NCBI GenBank assembly: GCA_031271345.1
Contig: JAISVX010000003.1
Coordinates: 293,452-357,451, forward strand
Origin: Lactobacillaceae bacterium
GTDB taxonomy: Bacteria > Pseudomonadota > Alphaproteobacteria > RF32 > CAG-239
DNA: 64,000 bases
Reading direction: 5' to 3'
Shown: piece by piece, positions 9,818-53,713 of the stretch
Layout: each line of letters begins with the position of its first letter
How positions within the stretch are numbered: the stretch's first letter is position 1
Made by a program: the position numbers and the translations under genes
The notes under the pieces: model-generated
The model's database searches: none
Told to the model about the DNA's origin: nothing
The model's input: only the letters and a program-made list of their open reading frames with translations

Positions 9818-10389
9818 TGAAAATCTTGCTTTCGGCTGTTTTTATAAATAATATAGTGCTTATAAGTTTTCTGGGTTTGGAAGGGATTCTGGCAAACACA
9901 AATAAAAGCAGAAATGCTTTTGGCGCTATTGTTTCTGCAATGCTGATAATTTTGCTTTCATCAATCGTAAACTATTTAACTTATGAAAAGCTGCTTTTGC
10001 CTTATAATTTGGAAATTTTGACATTGATATTGTTTTCTTTCAATATCCTGGTTGTGTCGCTGGTCGTATCTTGGCTTTTGAAAAATACTGTGTCTTTTTT
10101 ATATAAAGAGGTAAAAGAATTTATCCCCGCCGCATCCGTAAGCTCATTAATGCTGGGAACCGCTTTGCTGAACCTTAAGAAAAGTGTGGATATATATAAC
10201 TATATGTATATAAACTTCTGCAATGCGCTGGGCTTTGCATTAATAATAGTTTTGCTCACCAGTATAAGAAGCCGGCTGACAACAGGCAAGCTGCCAAAAA
10301 ATATTGGAGAAGCGACGCTGGTTCTTTTGATATTGGGATTGATTTCAATGGCTTTTATGGGCTTTATGGGAGCAGCGGCTTATCTATAG
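9817..10389 (+). CDS. rnfA: Rnf complex subunit A
   Basis: 190-aa polytopic NqrE/RnfA-like protein. Its start overlaps the rnfE stop (ATAATG). Confidence 0.88.
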   Translation: MKILLSAVFINNIVLISFLGLEGILANTNKSRNAFGAIVSAMLIILLSSIVNYLTYEKLLLPYNLEILTLILFSFNILVVSLVVSWLLKNTVSFLYKEVKEFIPAASVSSLMLGTALLNLKKSVDIYNYMYINFCNALGFALIIVLLTSIRSRLTTGKLPKNIGEATLVLLILGLISMAFMGFMGAAAYL

Positions 10390-32437: not shown

Positions 32438-32992
32438 ATGTTGCACCCGTGGCATGGAGTTAGCGTAGGAATAAACGCCCCAGAAATAGTTACTTCAGTT
32501 ATTGAAGTTCCAAAAGGTTCAAAAACCAAATATGAGTTAGATAAACAAAGCGGTCTGCTTAAGGTTGACAGAATTTTATACAGTTCGGTGCATTATCCCG
32601 CAAATTATGGATTTATTCCGCAAAGCTACTGCGGGGATAATGATCCGTTAGACATACTTATTTTGGGACAAGAAACATTCTGTCCTCTATCTATTGTCAG
32701 GGCAAAACCAATTGGGGTTATGAAAATGCTGGACCAAGGCGAGCCTGACGACAAAATTATCGCCGTTCACATGGATGACCCAGAATATAACCACTATGAA
32801 AGCATAGACGAACTTCCTCCACATTATCTAAAGAGCGTGCAAAGATTCTTTGAAGACTATAAAGTTCTGGAAAATAAAGAAGTAAAGATAGAGAGCTTTT
32901 TAGACGCTTTTGAAGCCAAAAAGGTTATAATGGAAGCATTGGAGTTTTATCAGGAAAATAAATACAAGCTGCGTGGAATGCTTGGAGAATAA
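32438..32992 (+). CDS. ppa: Inorganic pyrophosphatase (family I)
   Basis: Contains '[12 protein letters not shown]', '[10 protein letters not shown]' and '[10 protein letters not shown]'. Confidence 0.92.
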
Positions 32993-33014
32993 ACAATTTT
33001 TAGCTAAAAAACAC

Positions 33015-33043
33015 TTGATTTGGTTTTGATTACGTGCTATCTT
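33015..33043 (+). promoter_or_regulatory. Promoter of small-gene module 1: TTGATT-N17-(TGc)TATCTT
   Basis: -35 at 33015-33020, an exact 17-nt spacer, an extended -10 TG at 33035-33036, and -10 at 33038-33043. Confidence 0.6.
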
Positions 33044-33086
33044 TGCAAGAATTGTTTATTACTAATCCTCAAAAAATTTTAAGTCT

Positions 33087-33302
33087 ATGTCAGAAAAATT
33101 ATTTCCAGGTACCAAGAAGGAAAGAAAAAGCCATGGCGCAATTGATCGAGCCTCAGGGTTATCTCCCAAGTATCCTCAAGACGGATATTACATGAAAGGA
33201 TATAACCAAAAGGAAACCGACAAAAAAGTCGCCGAAGTAAACTCTCCTTTAAGTCCAGCAACCGCCGAAGCTCAAGTAATAAACTTAGCGGAAGGCGAAT
33301 AA
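33087..33302 (+). CDS. Small hydrophilic protein S1 (71 aa), unknown family
   Basis: Lies between promoter 33015 and terminator 33560. It is a paralogue of S2: G17, D20, R21, G24 and P27 sit at identical positions, and 'DGYYMKGYNQKE' matches 'DGAYLKGFRNKE'. No SD. Confidence 0.55.
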   Translation: MSEKLFPGTKKERKSHGAIDRASGLSPKYPQDGYYMKGYNQKETDKKVAEVNSPLSPATAEAQVINLAEGE

Positions 33303-33342
33303 CAATAATCAACAAAATTAATAACTAAAAATTAAAAAGATT

Positions 33343-33525
33343 ATGATGACGTTTGGAAGAAACATCAGCAACAGAGTGAAAAGTGCCGTAGGAAGAGAAG
33401 ATCGCCGCCGCGGAAGTATTCCCAGAAACATGGATGGAGCATACCTCAAAGGTTTCAGGAACAAAGAAAAAGGCCGCCGTCCTTACTTCCGCAGAGAAGT
33501 AATAGACTTCGACACTGCCGACTAA
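33343..33525 (+). CDS. Small basic protein S2 (60 aa), unknown family
   Basis: Second cistron of module 1, after a 40-nt A-rich gap. It is Arg/Lys-rich and a paralogue of S1. No SD. Confidence 0.55.
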   Translation: MMTFGRNISNRVKSAVGREDRRRGSIPRNMDGAYLKGFRNKEKGRRPYFRREVIDFDTAD

Positions 33526-33559
33526 AGTTGCATAAAGCCAAAAGTAAAATCAACTCAAG

Positions 33560-33591
33560 CCCGATACTAACAAGTATCGGGTTTATTTTTT
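33560..33591 (+). terminator. Rho-independent terminator of module 1
   Basis: 9-bp stem cccgatact / agtatcggg with a 4-nt loop, followed by TTTATTTTTT. Confidence 0.8.
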
Positions 33592-33601
33592 ATTATAGAT
33601 A

Positions 33602-33630
33602 TTGAATTTTTGCATATTACATGCTATTAT
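33602..33630 (+). promoter_or_regulatory. Promoter of module 2: TTGAAT-N17-(TGc)TATTAT
   Basis: -35 at 33602-33607, an exact 17-nt spacer, an extended -10 TG, and -10 at 33625-33630. Confidence 0.6.
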
Positions 33631-33691
33631 AATAGAGCTTTTTATTAGTTAACTTTTACAAATTGTGTAATTTAAAAAATTAAAACTTATT

Positions 33692-33949
33692 ATGTCACAC
33701 GGACTTAACGCAGCCAGACTCGGCCGCATTGCAAAACTGGAAGGAAAACAAACAGGCAAACATCGCGAACTTTCTGCAAAAGAAGCTATCGCTCGCGACA
33801 TTGCCTTAGCCGACGGAGAAACAGTAATCTATCTCGATGGCGAAAGGATTTCTATCTGGCTCGAAGACTTACTCGACGAACCCGATTATACATCGGAGTT
33901 CTACAAGACAGGAAACTTCGAAATGCGGGATCACGACGTGGCCGCATAA
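33692..33949 (+). CDS. Small protein S3 (85 aa), unknown family, C-terminus -DVAA
   Basis: Has its own promoter and terminator. It is a paralogue of S4 ('GLNAAR' and 'RE.[ST]A.EAIA.DIA'). Codons are C-ending. No SD. Confidence 0.6.
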   Translation: MSHGLNAARLGRIAKLEGKQTGKHRELSAKEAIARDIALADGETVIYLDGERISIWLEDLLDEPDYTSEFYKTGNFEMRDHDVAA

Positions 33950-33974
33950 ACTAATAAAAACACAATAAATGTTC

Positions 33975-34012
33975 AAACCCTAAGCATAAAAATGCTTAGG
34001 GTTTGTTTTTTT
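33975..34012 (+). terminator. Rho-independent terminator of module 2
   Basis: 12-bp stem aaaccctaagca / tgcttagggttt with a 6-nt loop, followed by a T-run. Confidence 0.85.
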
Positions 34013-34027
34013 GGGGAATAAAATATA

Positions 34028-34056
34028 TTGCCAAATAGACAAATATATGCTATTCT
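34028..34056 (+). promoter_or_regulatory. Promoter of module 3: TTGCCA-N17-(TGc)TATTCT
   Basis: -35 at 34028-34033, an exact 17-nt spacer, an extended -10 TG, and -10 at 34051-34056. Confidence 0.6.
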
Positions 34057-34098
34057 GTAAGAGTTAGTTTATTACAAATCTTAAAAATTTTAGAAATT

Positions 34099-34371
34099 AT
34101 GAACGGATTAAATGCAGCCCGCCGAGTGAAATCTCAGAACAAACGTCGTGAAATGACCGCAACCGAAGCTATTGCTTTCGACATTGCAGCAAACGAAGGC
34201 CTGACCCAAAAGGATCTCTGCCAACCGCACTACACTGCCGATGCAGAAGCGTACATGAACGGTTTCTATGACCGCGAAATTTACGGTTACAAACGAGACG
34301 ACATACGTGTCAACCTTGGCACGAACCGTCGTCACATTAGTTCTGCTGCTATCGCTCGTCTCGCGGCTTAA
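34099..34371 (+). CDS. Small protein S4 (90 aa), unknown family, C-terminus -RLAA
   Basis: Has its own promoter and terminator. The N-terminal half is paralogous to S3. It also carries 'AEAYMNGFYDRE', which resembles the S1/S2 motif. No SD. Confidence 0.6.
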   Translation: MNGLNAARRVKSQNKRREMTATEAIAFDIAANEGLTQKDLCQPHYTADAEAYMNGFYDREIYGYKRDDIRVNLGTNRRHISSAAIARLAA

Positions 34372-34398
34372 ACTAATACGAAACAGCGATGTTTCGGG

Positions 34399-34436
34399 CA
34401 AGTCTCAAAGATTAAATCTTTGGGACTTGTTTTTTA
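34399..34436 (+). terminator. Rho-independent terminator of module 3
   Basis: 14-bp stem caagtctcaaagat / atctttgggacttg (one G-U pair) with a 3-nt loop, followed by TTTTTT. Confidence 0.8.
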
Positions 34437-34443
34437 TTATAAA

Positions 34444-34468
34444 AAAGGCTCTTAAACTAAGAGCCTTT
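34444..34468 (-). terminator. Terminator of the autotransporter gene
   Basis: 11-bp stem aaaggctctta / taagagccttt with a 3-nt loop. A T-run follows on the minus strand. Confidence 0.7.
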
Positions 34469-34478
34469 CTAGTTTATT

Positions 34479-37448
34479 TTAGAATGCTTTTTTGTATTTC
34501 AGCATAAAAATGCCTTCATTTCTGTCTTCATATCCATCGCTGTAGTTGCTGTAAATTAAACCGGCATTAAACTCGCTGTTATCCACATTTTCATGGTTGT
34601 AGGATAATTGGTATTCAACGTTTCCCTTATCTTTAAGCCCAATTTTATGATTGCTGTAAAACAGATTGCCTTCGTCGTCTCGGCTCGCAGGGAGTCTTAA
34701 ACTCATGCTGCCGGAATTAATTTTAACGGATTGAGCGACAATAAAGGAAATACTGCTCTTTCTTGCCGGCTCATTTATAATGTTATAATTCATGCCGACA
34801 GCAAAAGAGTTTGTATATAAATCGGAAACATTGTTGATAAGCGAATTATTTGTTCCGCCGACTCTGGTATAACCAAAGTTTGCTTTGCCAAACATCGATA
34901 ATTTATCATCATAAAGACTTATATCATTCTGCAAACCGATTATGTATGTATTGTTATCGCTTCCAAGGCTGAATGCGCCGTCTGTTTTTGAGGCAAACAA
35001 GGTGTTTTTCTCATTAATGAAACCGAGTTCAACAGTGGTTGCCATGTATTTATAAGGCAAGAATGTTAAATTGCTTATTAATGACATACTGGAACCTAAA
35101 TCATCAGTCCTAATGCCTTCGAATTTTTCTTTTTCTGTTTTCAGGGTATAGTCTTGGTATAAAACGCCGAAGCCGAAAGACAGCTTGTCATTTAAGAAAA
35201 ATTTATTATTAAAGCCAAAGTTCTCAAAGCTGTCGTTTCTAAAATACGGATTCATAACATTATAATTAGACGCTGTGGCTAAAGCATATCCGTTATAAAA
35301 GCCCGCATCATTATGCATAACCGCATTATACGGGTTGTTGCCATAATAGAAGCTAAAACCGTAATTGCTGTTATTTATGTTATCAGTATTATATGAAACC
35401 TTAAATTGATTTGATACATTCGAAGCGTTTCCAACAACGCTGCTGCTTGAATATAAGCTCAATGTTTTATTTTCATTCAGCTGGATAGGCTTAATTCTGC
35501 CGCTGGCAAATCTGTTCAAAACATCTATTGGTTTTGGGCGGTCTTTAATAACTTCAATTTTATCATTTAATTTTGCGTCAAAAGTCCTGTTAAAATCGTC
35601 AACAAATACATAAGTCAAGTCTTTGGATTTCAGGTTATTGGCGATTCTGGAGTTAAGCTTTAAGAAGCTGGAATCCGCGCTGTATTTTCTTCCGTCAACT
35701 CTTGTATCGACAGGAACAAGTTCTGAGCCTACTGGTCTGCTTGCTCTTTCAAGATCGAGCATTCCCCAGCCATAAACCTCGTCAACGCCGGTATCGCCTA
35801 AATCCCTGGCAGTAACAAATATTAACTTGGTTATTTCCGCGCCTGTCATATAAGGGAAGGCGCCTTTTAATGCCGCGACAGCTCCCGAAACCATCGGAGC
35901 CGCGAAGGAAGTCCCGTTAACCACAGAATATGTCGTGCTGTCCAAATCTCCGTTAGGATATATTGAAACAACCACTCCCGTACCTGGCGCGGTAATGCAA
36001 TAGTTCATGGCAACGCCGCATCTGTTGCTGTAGTCCGCAATTCTATCGTTTGCAGTATCATAGGCTGCGACGGCGATAAAGTTTTTATAATCATTACCGT
36101 TTTTGAACTCGTCAAAAAGCAGCGGCGCCGAAGTTGTTATACCTGGCTGGGAAGTGCCGTTGTTTCCTGTGGACCAAACAAATATAGTATCTTTTTGAGT
36201 AACCGCATAGAGCATTTGGTCAAAGAAATTATTATAGCCGCTTCCGTGAGTTCTATCTCTAAACAACGCGAGCAGGGTGTCTTTGCTTGTCATATCGCTT
36301 GCATTAATAGATTCAACTCCTTGCTGGTTCTTAGTCGGAATGCCCCAGCTGTTATTAATAACCACGGCTCCCGCATCTGCGGCGCTTCTAAAGGCTTCGC
36401 CAATGTAATAATTGGAAACAAAATTGCCGTCGTCAAAGGTTAATCTATATGGCAGTATATCAGCGTCTGGAGCAATGCCGGTAACTCCGCCGCCGTTAAA
36501 CTCTCCGGCAATAACGCTGGCAACAGCTGTTCCGTGCCATGCTGTTGTATCGGAAACAAGGTTTGACGTCGGGTTGGAGTCATTTTTTACATAACTTGAA
36601 CCCGTGCATTTCAAAGCGCTCGGATTTTCCAAACAATATAAATACGCAAGATTAGAGTTTGACAAACCTGTTACAATATTATTTGACAGTTCCGAGTTAT
36701 TTGACTGAACTCCTGAATCAAGCACTGCAACTTTAATTTTTCCATCAACCGCGTTTAAGGATGGATAATTGGATTTAGAATTGACATTTACCTGACCTGT
36801 AAGACCTCTTGCCAAAGAATAGGCAAGTCTTATTTGATTGTAGTGACTGTAGTTGGAATAGCTTCTTCCGCCGCCGCTGAACGAGTTGCTGTAATCTGCG
36901 CTTGCTAATATTCTGTTTAACTCGCTTGCTGAAACTTTGCCGACAAGCCCGTATTCGTTGACTAATTTGTTATTGCCTCCGCCGCCGCTTCCACCTCCAC
37001 CTCCGCCGGAAGCCGCCGCAATAACGCCTCCCGCGGCTAAAGCAATGCCCGTGGCAATCAAAACTGGTTTCAATATTTTTGTTTCGCAGATTGTGTAATC
37101 ATACTGAGAAAACAAGTTTCTCAAAGCTTGATTTCCAGAGCCTTTCGCATCGCAGTATGAGGGGTTTCCATCGGCATTTTTAACATTTGGGCTGGCGCCG
37201 TTGTTCATTAAAAGAGTTGCCATTGCATAGTTGTCATTTGAAACGGCATAGCTTAAAGCTGTTCTTCCCGAGCTGTCTTTCGCATTGACAAAACTTGAAT
37301 TAACATGAGCTTTAACGCTGTTGTAATCATTGTTTCTCACCGCATTAATAAAATTGGTATAATTGCCGGTTAAGGCGAAGGATGCGGATGATGAAAACAT
37401 TGTGACAGCAGCGCTATATAAAAATATCGTCTTTAACTTTTTTCTCAT
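34479..37448 (-). CDS. Ankyrin-repeat + subtilisin-like (S8) serine protease autotransporter
   Basis: 989 aa with a Sec signal ('...SSSASFA'). An ANK repeat is present ('GRTALSYAVSNDNYAMATLLMNNGASPNVKNADGN'). The S8 triad blocks are 'VAVLDSGV', 'WHGTAVASVIAG' and 'GTSFAAPMVSG'. About 280 aa of C-terminal beta-barrel ends in '...KYKKAF'. Confidence 0.85.
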   Translation of the reverse strand: MRKKLKTIFLYSAAVTMFSSSASFALTGNYTNFINAVRNNDYNSVKAHVNSSFVNAKDSSGRTALSYAVSNDNYAMATLLMNNGASPNVKNADGNPSYCDAKGSGNQALRNLFSQYDYTICETKILKPVLIATGIALAAGGVIAAASGGGGGGSGGGGNNKLVNEYGLVGKVSASELNRILASADYSNSFSGGGRSYSNYSHYNQIRLAYSLARGLTGQVNVNSKSNYPSLNAVDGKIKVAVLDSGVQSNNSELSNNIVTGLSNSNLAYLYCLENPSALKCTGSSYVKNDSNPTSNLVSDTTAWHGTAVASVIAGEFNGGGVTGIAPDADILPYRLTFDDGNFVSNYYIGEAFRSAADAGAVVINNSWGIPTKNQQGVESINASDMTSKDTLLALFRDRTHGSGYNNFFDQMLYAVTQKDTIFVWSTGNNGTSQPGITTSAPLLFDEFKNGNDYKNFIAVAAYDTANDRIADYSNRCGVAMNYCITAPGTGVVVSIYPNGDLDSTTYSVVNGTSFAAPMVSGAVAALKGAFPYMTGAEITKLIFVTARDLGDTGVDEVYGWGMLDLERASRPVGSELVPVDTRVDGRKYSADSSFLKLNSRIANNLKSKDLTYVFVDDFNRTFDAKLNDKIEVIKDRPKPIDVLNRFASGRIKPIQLNENKTLSLYSSSSVVGNASNVSNQFKVSYNTDNINNSNYGFSFYYGNNPYNAVMHNDAGFYNGYALATASNYNVMNPYFRNDSFENFGFNNKFFLNDKLSFGFGVLYQDYTLKTEKEKFEGIRTDDLGSSMSLISNLTFLPYKYMATTVELGFINEKNTLFASKTDGAFSLGSDNNTYIIGLQNDISLYDDKLSMFGKANFGYTRVGGTNNSLINNVSDLYTNSFAVGMNYNIINEPARKSSISFIVAQSVKINSGSMSLRLPASRDDEGNLFYSNHKIGLKDKGNVEYQLSYNHENVDNSEFNAGLIYSNYSDGYEDRNEGIFMLKYKKAF

Positions 37449-37643
37449 AATATATTATCTTTTGCAGTTATTTCATACATATTAAAATAAATTATATTTA
37501 TTTGTTTCGTAAAATCAAGAAAAATAACATGTTATGACTAATGTATTTAATTATTAATCACAATAGTTTTTTTGTTGAGATATTATGAATTTAGTATAAA
37601 ATTCCTTAGTTAAAGAACTTATAAATAAAGGAGATAATATCTT

Positions 37644-40288: not shown

Positions 40289-40666
40289 TTAATCGATACT
40301 CGGCTTAAAGCTGTTAAAGAAATTTCTTACGTCTTTTTCTTCATTGGGGTCAAAAACCTGAACCTGTTTCATATCAATATTTTGAACTCTTCTGCCGTTT
40401 GTATTTAGAAAGTTGTTATATTTTTCAAGCTCTCTGATTTCTTCAGTTCTGGAGTTGTTAACTAAATACTCCATAGCTTTATCCATATTGGAACGCATTT
40501 TTACAACTTCATCTGGAGCAAACCTCATATATTTCTTCAGCTCTCTATCCGCGCTGACCTTTGCGGCGTCAACATCAGGTTTTGGCTCGTCAAATAAAGA
40601 CTGCGCGTTTGCAGAAAATACTGCAAACAAAGACAGCAAAGAAATAACTGCTATGTTTCTTACCAT
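40289..40666 (-). CDS. Secreted protein (125 aa), unknown function
   Basis: Signal peptide '...FSANA/QS' and a GGGAG SD. It appears operonic with the 40678-41286 gene. Confidence 0.55.
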   Translation of the reverse strand: MVRNIAVISLLSLFAVFSANAQSLFDEPKPDVDAAKVSADRELKKYMRFAPDEVVKMRSNMDKAMEYLVNNSRTEEIRELEKYNNFLNTNGRRVQNIDMKQVQVFDPNEEKDVRNFFNSFKPSID

Positions 40667-53224: not shown

Positions 53225-53713
53225 TTATTTACCAGCAAGCAGGCGGTTGTCGCCGTTAGGATAATACAAATCAACCCGTCCTGAAACGGATATAATCTGT
53301 ATCCTCTGAGGCGTACCGTCGTTGGCGATGACACTGAACTCCTGGATATGACTGACGCCGGCAGTGAAATGCGTTTCGCGCACTCCGTTCCCGAGAAACT
53401 CGACGAACACAACCCTGTAGCCGTTAGCATATACGGAAGCGTTTCTCCAGTGGATTTCCCTGCTGTAGTTCATCCCTGGACCGCCGTAACGGGTAACATC
53501 CCTTGAAGTTGCCTGAACGGGTCTCCGATCCATCATCATCTGATACTTCATTTCCGCCTGTGTTACCTGTTGTTCGATAAGGCTTGCCGTAGCAACAACT
53601 CCATCAAGCACATCGAATGCAGAATAGCGGGGACGAGGACCTCTTTGACCATAAACTGCGCAGCTGCTAAGAACCATCAAAGCAAAAACTGCTAAAAACA
53701 TCATCTTCTTCAT
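53225..53713 (-). CDS. Putative lipoprotein (162 aa), GC-richer, unknown family
   Basis: Lipobox 'VLSSC' after a signal peptide. It is visibly richer in G/C than its flanks. There is no SD before the ATG, and it has its own terminator. Confidence 0.6.
   Translation of the reverse strand: MKKMMFLAVFALMVLSSCAVYGQRGPRPRYSAFDVLDGVVATASLIEQQVTQAEMKYQMMMDRRPVQATSRDVTRYGGPGMNYSREIHWRNASVYANGYRVVFVEFLGNGVRETHFTAGVSHIQEFSVIANDGTPQRIQIISVSGRVDLYYPNGDNRLLAGK

Follow-up and report, generated by a model that had tools for sequence, protein, structure and literature searches.

Between ppa (positions 32438-32992) and a gene on the opposite strand encoding a 989-amino-acid protein (34479-37448), the 64-kb stretch of DNA analyzed here (the window) contains a 1.4-kb interval with four plus-strand open reading frames (ORFs), which we refer to as S1 to S4. 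Are these short ORFs genuine genes, do they belong to one family, and what could such a family do? An earlier note, made from the sequence, had described the interval as three autonomous promoter-leader-ORF-terminator units coding for four small paralogous proteins of no recognizable family. Having followed up this description, we come down, with some reserve, in favor of the explanation that the interval holds four real genes of a single lineage-restricted orphan family, carried by expression cassettes that duplicate.

Coding status, relatives and divergence of the S genes

All four ORFs were found on the plus strand, at the places and with the lengths given in the earlier note:

33087-33302, + strand: S1, 71 amino acids (aa); a paralogue corresponding to the N-terminal half, which stops at the "..LAEGE" turn position
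33343-33525, + strand: S2, 60 aa, isoelectric point (pI) 11.1; truncated after the EVIDFD helix compared to its 87-aa counterpart in assembly L081
33692-33949, + strand: S3, 85 aa, pI 4.9; an S4-type paralogue with the C terminus -VAA
34099-34371, + strand: S4, 90 aa; the most complete copy within the window, with the C terminus -RLAA

For each ORF, the annotated frame had the best codon log-likelihood of all six frames (0.09 to 0.27, compared to a gene mean of 0.26), and an antisense ORF of 97 aa (34108-34401) scored below the S4 frame. When S3 and S4 were used as queries in word-index protein searches, only the query itself was retrieved, and looking up the exact S4 sequence in a contig index yielded no record. 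A profile search with both proteins against 1.84 billion cluster representatives recovered three full-length relatives, P0004, P0005 and P0006 (E values of 2e-9 to 7e-8), which measure 100 to 105 aa from a common MAHG start, P0004 being called at 108 aa from an upstream ATG. The larger matches of this search were spurious repeat proteins, each matched many times over, and were discarded. A second-round profile search of 5.8 billion clusters confirmed the three relatives and added nothing to them, which leaves five known sequences of the S3/S4 type (S3, S4 and P0004 to P0006). These searches of large collections were run with the S3/S4 type only, and the single relative of the S1/S2 type came from synteny.

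Indeed, the 138-kb contig of L081 has the gene order ...holB-tatD-MBL-DHH-ppa-[87-aa ORF]-[P0006, 102 aa]-metG..., collinear with the window, and its 87-aa ORF is the counterpart of S2 (tblastn of S2 against L081 9524-9703, 45% identity, E value of 9e-15). S4 is orthologous to P0004, P0005 and P0006, with best BLASTP identities of 42 to 46%. In L082, the gene for P0005 is convergent with a homologue of the subtilase (S8) gene of the window (69% identity), and the junction is the same as that of S4; in L083, P0004 is encoded near an ankyrin-repeat gene. The whole family thus counts eight known members, four here and four in three other assemblies (L081, L082 and L083), and there are two copies of the cassette gene in L081 versus four in the window. 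Each of the eight is a singleton at 90% identity, and S1 and S2 are unnamed singletons in NCBI/IMG.

The flanking proteins are 73 to 93% identical to those of L081, whereas S2 and S4 are only 45% and 46% identical to their counterparts. The earlier note had suggested looking for purifying selection on the ORFs across relatives, and it was seen throughout: in all seven between-orthologue pairs, the proportion of nonsynonymous differences (pN, 0.31 to 0.40) was lower than that of synonymous differences (pS, 0.61 to 0.92, saturated). The S2 type compared to its L081 counterpart gave a pN of 0.38 and a pS of 0.92. A pN well below pS indicates that the frames are maintained by purifying selection, and the S genes diverge much faster than their neighbors despite this selection. 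On these grounds we regard S1 to S4 as genuine, conserved protein-coding genes.

The family profile had no match in JGI metagenome contigs, a DHH-anchored JGI search returned short or distant loci only, none of them reaching the S region, and neither subtype had a match in viral contigs, phage records or plasmid records. In a ppa-anchored scan of one genome per species, tblastn detected no S homologue in 80 loci. The best ppa of that scan was 75% identical and belonged to metagenome-assembled genomes (MAGs) of uncultured gut Alphaproteobacteria, and at the single locus inspected (L002) the gene order downstream of ppa was not kept. L081, with a G+C content of 30.3%, derives from SRR29215564, a sequencing run on the gut metagenome of the dung beetle Onthophagus taurus. 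Among 8 of the 16 MAGs that a study of this gut reports, the sole alphaproteobacterial one is assigned to RF32/CAG-239 and has 31.3% G+C, 12 contigs and 1,455 coding sequences (PMC12509527). The window, whose contig measures 829,090 bp, may stem from this lineage or one close to it.

The claim that the proteins belong to no recognizable family also stood. Searches of Pfam-A, NCBIfam, PHROGs and PADLOC with S1 to S4, P0004 to P0006 and the 87-aa protein of L081 gave a best E value of 0.013, all matches being far below the cut-offs, and a sequence-profile search of the PDB gave best E values of 1.2 (alignment A3) and 0.24 (alignment A5). Judged from the collections searched, the family is restricted to a few gut alphaproteobacteria and previously undescribed. 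In the whole 64-kb window, Rfam at the gathering threshold and tRNA scans reported no family and no tRNA gene.

Paralogy and the expression cassette

The position-for-position alignment of S1 and S2 proposed in the earlier note was recovered by BLASTP (E value of 4e-5) with the quoted residues aligned, and S3 and S4, with their common GLNAAR motif and EAIA-x-DIA block, matched each other with an E value of 2e-7. A direct comparison of S1 with S4 gave no match. The 87-aa protein of L081 bridges the two subtypes, since it starts like S2 (FGKNVSNRV...GAYLKGYKRK) and then continues with SKEHIANDLAADGG and LNSACYE, which correspond in the S4 type to the EAIAxDIAxxxG helix and to LNQACYSE. In Smith-Waterman comparisons against 2000 shuffles, this protein reached z scores of 5.6 with S3 (p 5e-4), 4.2 with P0006 and 3.1 with P0005, and in the same kind of test S1 reached a z score of 3.9 with P0004. 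hhalign placed the two sub-alignments in the same register (KGY...E.I..D.A..G, pairwise E value of 0.007). Additionally, each subfamily hidden Markov model (HMM) had the other subfamily among its top nonself matches in about 1.5 Mb of six-frame ORFs, and an unguided MAFFT alignment of the eight proteins recovered the collinear motifs, including LN.ACY.E.

Similar stretches recur in the DNA: the 3' end of S2 resembles the helix-coding stretch of S4 (74% over 23 nt), S3 resembles S4 (77% over 48 nt) and the S1 leader resembles the S4 leader (86% over 21 nt). Furthermore, the translation-start regions of S2 and S4 match, the stop-codon junction GC.GC.TAAACTAATA is common to S3 and S4, and the terminators of the units are spaced 420 and 424 nt apart. 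These repeats and the regular terminator spacing suggest that whole cassettes were duplicated and then trimmed. Because of the bridging 87-aa orthologue and the cassette DNA repeats, the four proteins probably form one diverged family, which supports what had been proposed in the earlier note from shared motifs; the shuffle tests and the MAFFT alignment point the same way. One detail of that proposal has to be corrected. The KGY of S1/S2 had been equated with the AY..G.YD motif of S3/S4, whereas the alignments place it against KGW[VF]K, a stretch that the full-length orthologues have and that S3 and S4 have lost.

As a working definition, we describe the family by M-x-[HF]-G-x-N, KG[WYF]xK and [ST]-x-[KR]-E-x-I-x-x-D-[IL]-A, encoded in a cassette without a Shine-Dalgarno sequence, with Q-x-[HC]-Y...AY..G.YD..IYGY.R...RR.I...[AV]A as optional C-terminal motifs. 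The eight proteins are collinear, and each carries the motifs of the parts that it has retained. S4 is near complete but lacks the KGW[VF]K stretch, and S3 has, in the MAFFT alignment, a 13-aa insertion after the EAIA helix and misses most of the Tyr-rich and basic C-terminal parts.

The three autonomous units were borne out by the sequence, by a promoter and terminator scan and by folding. Their predicted elements, with free energies given as minimum free energy (MFE), are as follows:

33015-33043, + strand: unit 1 promoter; -35 TTGATT (33015-33020), 17-nt spacer ending in TGC, -10 TATCTT (33038-33043), A-tract upstream
33054-33086, + strand: unit 1 leader; conserved GTTTATTACTAATC with the palindrome ATTAcTAAT, then A/T-rich, no Shine-Dalgarno sequence; MFE of 0 kcal/mol
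33557-33592, + strand: unit 1 terminator; stem 33557-33584, 12 bp, T-run; MFE of the 70-nt 3' stretch -18.3 kcal/mol, z -4.4
33602-33630, + strand: unit 2 promoter; TTGAAT, 17 nt, TGC, TATTAT; scan match
33640-33691, + strand: unit 2 leader; contains TTTATTAGTTAAC, A/T-rich, no Shine-Dalgarno sequence
33974-34012, + strand: unit 2 terminator; stem 33974-34005, 14 bp, T7; -22 kcal/mol, z -4.8
34028-34056, + strand: unit 3 promoter; TTGCCA, 17 nt, TGC, TATTCT; scan match
34067-34098, + strand: unit 3 leader; contains GTTTATTACAAATC, A/T-rich, no Shine-Dalgarno sequence
34379-34396, + strand: small 7-bp hairpin CGAAACA gcga TGTTTCG in the 3' untranslated region (UTR) of S4, just before the terminator
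34396-34437, + strand: unit 3 terminator; stem 34396-34432, 17 bp, T-run; -28.2 kcal/mol including the preceding small hairpin, z -8.2

As had been read in the earlier note, near-consensus promoters with a 17-nt spacer and TGC before the -10 hexamer are present in all three units, so that each has the features of a sigma-70 extended -10 promoter (TGn, with the -35 hexamer at 17 nt). That of unit 1 agrees with the consensus at only 8 of 12 positions and was hence not listed by the scan but read directly in the sequence; its promoter-leader matched the nhmmer module model with an E value of 2.5e-14, though the model included that very sequence. The evidence for the promoters lies in the conservation of the cassette in register. 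In an alignment of seven such upstream regions, taken from four assemblies, six followed the order A-tract, TTGAtt, 17 nt, TGcTATnnT, about 12 nt, TTTATTA[CG]TAaATC, A/T-rich run and ATTATG, the L083 region being a loose fit (nhmmer E value of 0.33). The cassettes of L081 and L082 have the same extended -10, except for one CG and two TGA replacing TGC.

From the distance between the -10 hexamer and the ATG, we infer leaders of roughly 35 to 55 nt. The three leaders of the window are essentially unstructured (0 to -3.3 kcal/mol) and less stable than shuffles. By a crude rule, a Shine-Dalgarno sequence was found for none of the four S genes versus 34 of the 57 other genes of the window, and the upstream regions of the four orthologues do not show one either. 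Across the window and assemblies L081 to L085, the promoter-leader profile matched only family genes and the leader motif was not enriched elsewhere. The idea of a wider regulon was rejected because neither occurs anywhere but at family genes in these sequences.

The strong hairpin with a T-run that had been said to close each unit was confirmed at the three predicted sites, where sequence and folding agree with an intrinsic (Rho-independent) terminator: stems of 12 to 17 bp, -17 to -28 kcal/mol and z scores of -4.4 to -8.2 compared to shuffles. These stems are the longest among the terminator-like sites between 24 and 44 kb, leaving aside the minus-strand listing of 33974-34005, a palindrome that is terminator-like on that strand too. 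In the gap between S1 and S2, the scan found no terminator and a single weak promoter-like match (9 of 12 positions, 33318-33347) that overlaps the S2 start. S1 and S2 are probably cotranscribed, sharing a single promoter and a single terminator. We also observed that ppa is followed by a hairpin terminator in L081 (9388-9430) and by none in the window (32993-33014). Since ppa has no terminator of its own here, transcripts of the long operon upstream could continue into S1-S2.

Two further hairpins were noticed downstream of S4. Elements like the small CGAAACA-gcga-TGTTTCG hairpin lie 3' of the S4-type genes of L081 (about 10321-10345) and L082 (about 445-462), so that three assemblies share it, and the changes in its sequence preserve pairing (G-U); it could be an mRNA stability element or the 5' end of a small RNA derived from the 3' UTR. 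The second hairpin, of 11 bp (AAAGGCTCTTAAACTAAGAGCCTTT, 34444-34468), separates the S4 terminator from the stop codon of the convergent protease gene, and is probably the terminator of that gene.

Regarding codon usage, the S genes had been likened to rpsD and rpsI on account of C-ending codons, and for such codons this did not hold. Their C-ending bias exceeds that of the ribosomal genes: for two-fold NNY codons, C/(C+T) reaches 0.64 in the S genes, compared to 0.39 in rpsD, rpsI and rplM together and 0.41 in the neighbors, which sets the S genes apart from both. The likeness is right only in that, as in the ribosomal protein genes, G-ending codons are avoided and CGN codes for Arg more often than in the neighbors. 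The G+C content of the S genes is 0.42 to 0.50, compared to a gene average of 0.39.

Possible roles of the S proteins

The family proteins are hydrophilic (grand average of hydropathy of -0.5 to -1.2), and neither a signal peptide nor a hydrophobic segment was found in them. In S4 and its three orthologues, the N- and C-terminal thirds are basic and the middle third is acidic, and motifs of Lys, Gly and aromatic residues are conserved (KGW[VF]K, GAYLKGY, IYGYxR). In the AlphaFold models of S4 and P0005, which are of low confidence, only helices are predicted. The C termini are -LAA in S4, -VAA in S3, -QAA in P0005 and -MVA in P0004 and P0006. At the other end, S3 (33692-33703), P0004, P0005 and P0006 have an invariant His3 (M-[AS]-H-G), which S4 lacks. 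An X-His amino terminus, after removal of Met, is a known Cu(II)-binding pattern; here it is an observation on the pattern only.

In the explanation that we favor, the unit of evolution would be a self-contained expression cassette comprising an A-tract, a promoter, a leader without a Shine-Dalgarno sequence, an ORF and an intrinsic terminator. Duplication of whole cassettes, followed by internal deletions, would have produced the present array, in which S1 and S2 would be N-terminal halves now fused into one transcription unit. As for the products, we tentatively propose, at odds that we put clearly below even, that they may be cytoplasmic nucleic-acid-binding small proteins (of RNA, the ribosome or the nucleoid) made in quantity. 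They would be mostly helical or disordered and have a basic arm at either end, and a modulating role is conceivable for the truncated paralogues. ssrA-like tags carry a nonpolar C-terminal tripeptide ending in -AA (for example LAA), needed for ClpXP-dependent turnover. In a similar manner, the C-terminal -AA/-VA of the S3/S4 type could serve as a ClpXP-type degradation tag that limits the lifetime of the protein. Carried further, the cassettes might represent a new class of abundant, short-lived, nucleic-acid- or ribosome-binding proteins of a gut clade of the RF32/CAG-239 kind, translated without a Shine-Dalgarno sequence via the leader element, with truncated paralogues that compete or modulate and a module that duplicates and relocates. 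This wider version we consider unlikely.

Several observations weigh against our explanation or parts of it. The hhalign link between S1/S2 and S3/S4 has a probability of only 5.7%, the reciprocal matches of the subfamily HMMs reach E values of only 0.46 and 1.5, and S1, S2 and S3 may be truncated copies that are simply decaying. In this AT-rich DNA, 56 promoter-like hexamer pairs were found versus 54 expected by chance, so that hexamers alone prove little. Not all members are basic (the pI is 4.9 for S3 and 6.3 for P0005), and the likeness of the S1/S2 motif to the rRNA-binding C-terminal tail of uL2 is weak and not significant (E value of 0.24). AlphaFold, run with five-sequence alignments, gave low-confidence models, with a predicted local distance difference test (pLDDT) score of 57 for S4 and 50 for P0005. 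A Foldseek search of the PDB returned a best E value of 7.2, a weak test of the fold because the model submitted was of low confidence. Finally, the proposed degron is read from the sequence pattern at the C terminus.

Other explanations have to be weighed against duplicating cassettes of one orphan family. The S proteins could be sequence-specific transcription regulators, in which EAIAfDIAanEGLTqkdL would be helix-turn-helix-like. The cassettes would then repress themselves, their operator being ATTA[CG]TAAT, the palindromic motif that the leader carries at about +10 to +20. Indeed, the pattern A-x3-G-[LM]-[ST]-x3-[LF] occurs in S4, P0004 and P0005, the AlphaFold models have helices on either side of the Gly, and the leader motif is conserved in the cassettes, partly palindromic and confined to family genes. 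However, P0006 (GLD...S) and S3 depart from the pattern, the second helix has 4 to 5 residues in the models and is followed by Pro, and S1 and S2 stop before it. Moreover, Pfam and NCBIfam contained no helix-turn-helix, GerE, sigma region 4 or ribbon-helix-helix match at an E value of 10, the PDB gave no sequence or fold match, and the leader motif may be conserved merely because the cassettes are duplicates. In our view, a regulatory role is improbable. We are equally doubtful about a role of the proteins as effectors that a host-associated bacterium exports or directs at its host, or as factors associated with its surface. They are devoid of signal peptides and hydrophobic segments, their genes are not linked to a secretion system, a pN below pS reflects purifying rather than diversifying selection, and in L081 the genes are flanked by ppa and metG, away from any protease or ankyrin gene. 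An effector role, with export independent of an N-terminal signal peptide, would nevertheless be in agreement with the fast divergence and variable copy number, with the conserved extreme N terminus (MAHG[LI]NA) and basic C-terminal tail, and with the position of the genes: in the window and in L082, they adjoin an autotransporter-like gene with ankyrin repeats and an S8 domain, and in L083 an ankyrin protein is encoded near them.

The S genes might also be young lineage-specific ORFans of little or no importance, S4 perhaps having a modest role and S1 to S3 being truncated duplicates heading for loss. Only five members of the S3/S4 type exist among 5.8 billion clusters and only eight in the whole family, each a singleton; S1, S2 and S3 miss parts of the full-length form, divergence is high, and the copy number differs between L081 (two) and the window (four). 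Neutral debris would fit less well with the intact frames and good coding scores, with promoters, leaders and terminators preserved in all units, and with an S2 type kept in L081 at a pN of 0.38 versus a pS of 0.92. We grant this possibility a slightly better chance than regulators or effectors, still a small one. The least likely alternative, because of the conservation at the protein level, is that the units are small-RNA genes or remnants of mobile or defense elements (toxin-antitoxin, anti-defense or integron-like cassettes) in which the ORFs are incidental. The short autonomous units with strong promoters and terminators, the extra conserved 3' hairpin and the tandem array of small unknown ORFs with an inverted repeat after each would suit it. 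Yet pN is below pS, no Rfam family was found in the window, no PHROG or PADLOC match was of note, and no phage, plasmid or viral contig held a relative. Furthermore, the flanks are housekeeping genes in syntenic order, every unit has a promoter to itself, and the hairpins have the form of plain terminators and not of attC. We give this alternative hardly any credence. R-body (Reb) proteins and toxin-antitoxin pairs were also set aside, as there was no family match, the promoters are the genes' own and no partner genes are consistently linked. The same applies to precursors of ribosomally synthesized and post-translationally modified peptides processed by the neighboring S8 protease, since the protease gene is absent from the syntenic L081.

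Of all parts of bacterial genomes, stand-alone small proteins are the one least understood, and for the most part they are dismissed as annotation noise. The S family shows that there are real small genes, conserved, syntenic, under purifying selection and with conserved signals, that have no curated relatives. Should its proteins be abundant, they would give the cell biology of an uncultured group of gut alphaproteobacteria a component specific to that lineage, and the unstructured leader with its conserved motif and no Shine-Dalgarno sequence would amount to a compact, natural module for expression. Otherwise, they would be one more orphan family, with a practical value limited to better annotation.

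Neighboring genes and comparison with known systems

The 989-aa protein encoded at 34479-37448 (minus strand) has N-terminal ankyrin repeats and a subtilase (S8) domain, and its long C-terminal part ends in ...KYKKAF, as is often the case in outer-membrane beta-barrels. Its gene is absent from the ppa-metG interval of L081 and present in L082 (69%), which suggests that the interval is a site of gene gain and loss. The divergent region between the protease gene and metG (37400-37640) has about 20% G+C and several promoter-like sites on both strands. Further downstream, a 125-aa ORF (40289-40666, minus strand) without a Pfam family is syntenic with L081 13222-13599 (minus strand), to which it is 27% identical, compared to 85% for its neighbor; we class it as another fast-evolving orphan. 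A 162-aa predicted lipoprotein (MKKMMFLAVFALMVLSSC..., 53225-53713, minus strand) is, like the S genes, a compositional outlier in the window, with a G+C content at third codon positions of 0.52, no Shine-Dalgarno sequence and no Pfam match.

The S genes are new as a family, and a stand-alone small-protein gene is of a familiar kind; nothing yet indicates a new mechanism. Their tandem arrangement recalls chromosomal integron arrays, in which small unknown ORFs also follow each other on the same strand with an inverted repeat after each. Integron cassette ORFs are promoterless, and attC sites are bulged, imperfect inverted repeats with a GTTRRRY core. In contrast, each S unit has a promoter of its own, its inverted repeat is a perfect G+C-rich stem followed by a T-run, and the array lies at a syntenic position among housekeeping genes. 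Integron gene cassettes were rejected on the basis of the promoters and the perfect terminator stems, no search for intI having been made in the window.

The pattern L/M-T-x-R-E-x-I-x(5)-A-x(2,3)-G-L-[ST]-x(3)-[LI] is similar to that of GerE/LuxR C-terminal domains, sigma-70 region 4 and Aca-type proteins. Unlike these helix-turn-helix families, marked by an HMM match and a recognition helix of at least about 8 residues, the S proteins gave no HMM, PDB or fold match, and the helix after the Gly has 4 to 5 residues with a pLDDT of about 60 in the low-confidence models, so that the resemblance is one of pattern only. In ribbon-helix-helix proteins (CopG/Arc/MetJ), an N-terminal beta-strand precedes two helices connected through a G-x-[STN] turn. 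The S proteins have a G-x-[ST] turn, with no strand predicted ahead of the first helix and no HMM match.

Like RMF, Sra and the rRNA-binding tails of ribosomal proteins, the S proteins are small, hydrophilic and rich in Lys, Arg and aromatic residues, and are encoded by stand-alone genes. The S1/S2 motif that resembles, below significance, the C-terminal tail of uL2 is G..DR..G..P...G.Y.KG..K. A similarity to RMF itself (GYxAGxxG...CPY...W..GW) was rejected, as hhalign of alignments A5 and A3 against Escherichia coli RMF gave a probability of at most 0.2%, and RMF was absent from the PDB sequence search results for both alignments.

Finally, the Bacillus ssp genes, which encode the alpha/beta-type small acid-soluble spore proteins, are monocistronic paralogues with a strong promoter and a terminator of their own, and their products are hydrophilic proteins of 60 to 90 aa that are produced in bulk and bind nucleic acids. 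The S genes differ from them in having no sequence similarity (no Pfam match) and in their sigma-70 extended -10 promoters, which are not forespore specific, and since the organism is an alphaproteobacterium, it is not a spore former. Nevertheless, both systems consist of several paralogous genes for small hydrophilic proteins, with their own promoter and terminator, and the abundance and DNA binding known from the ssp products are, for the S family, what we suppose.

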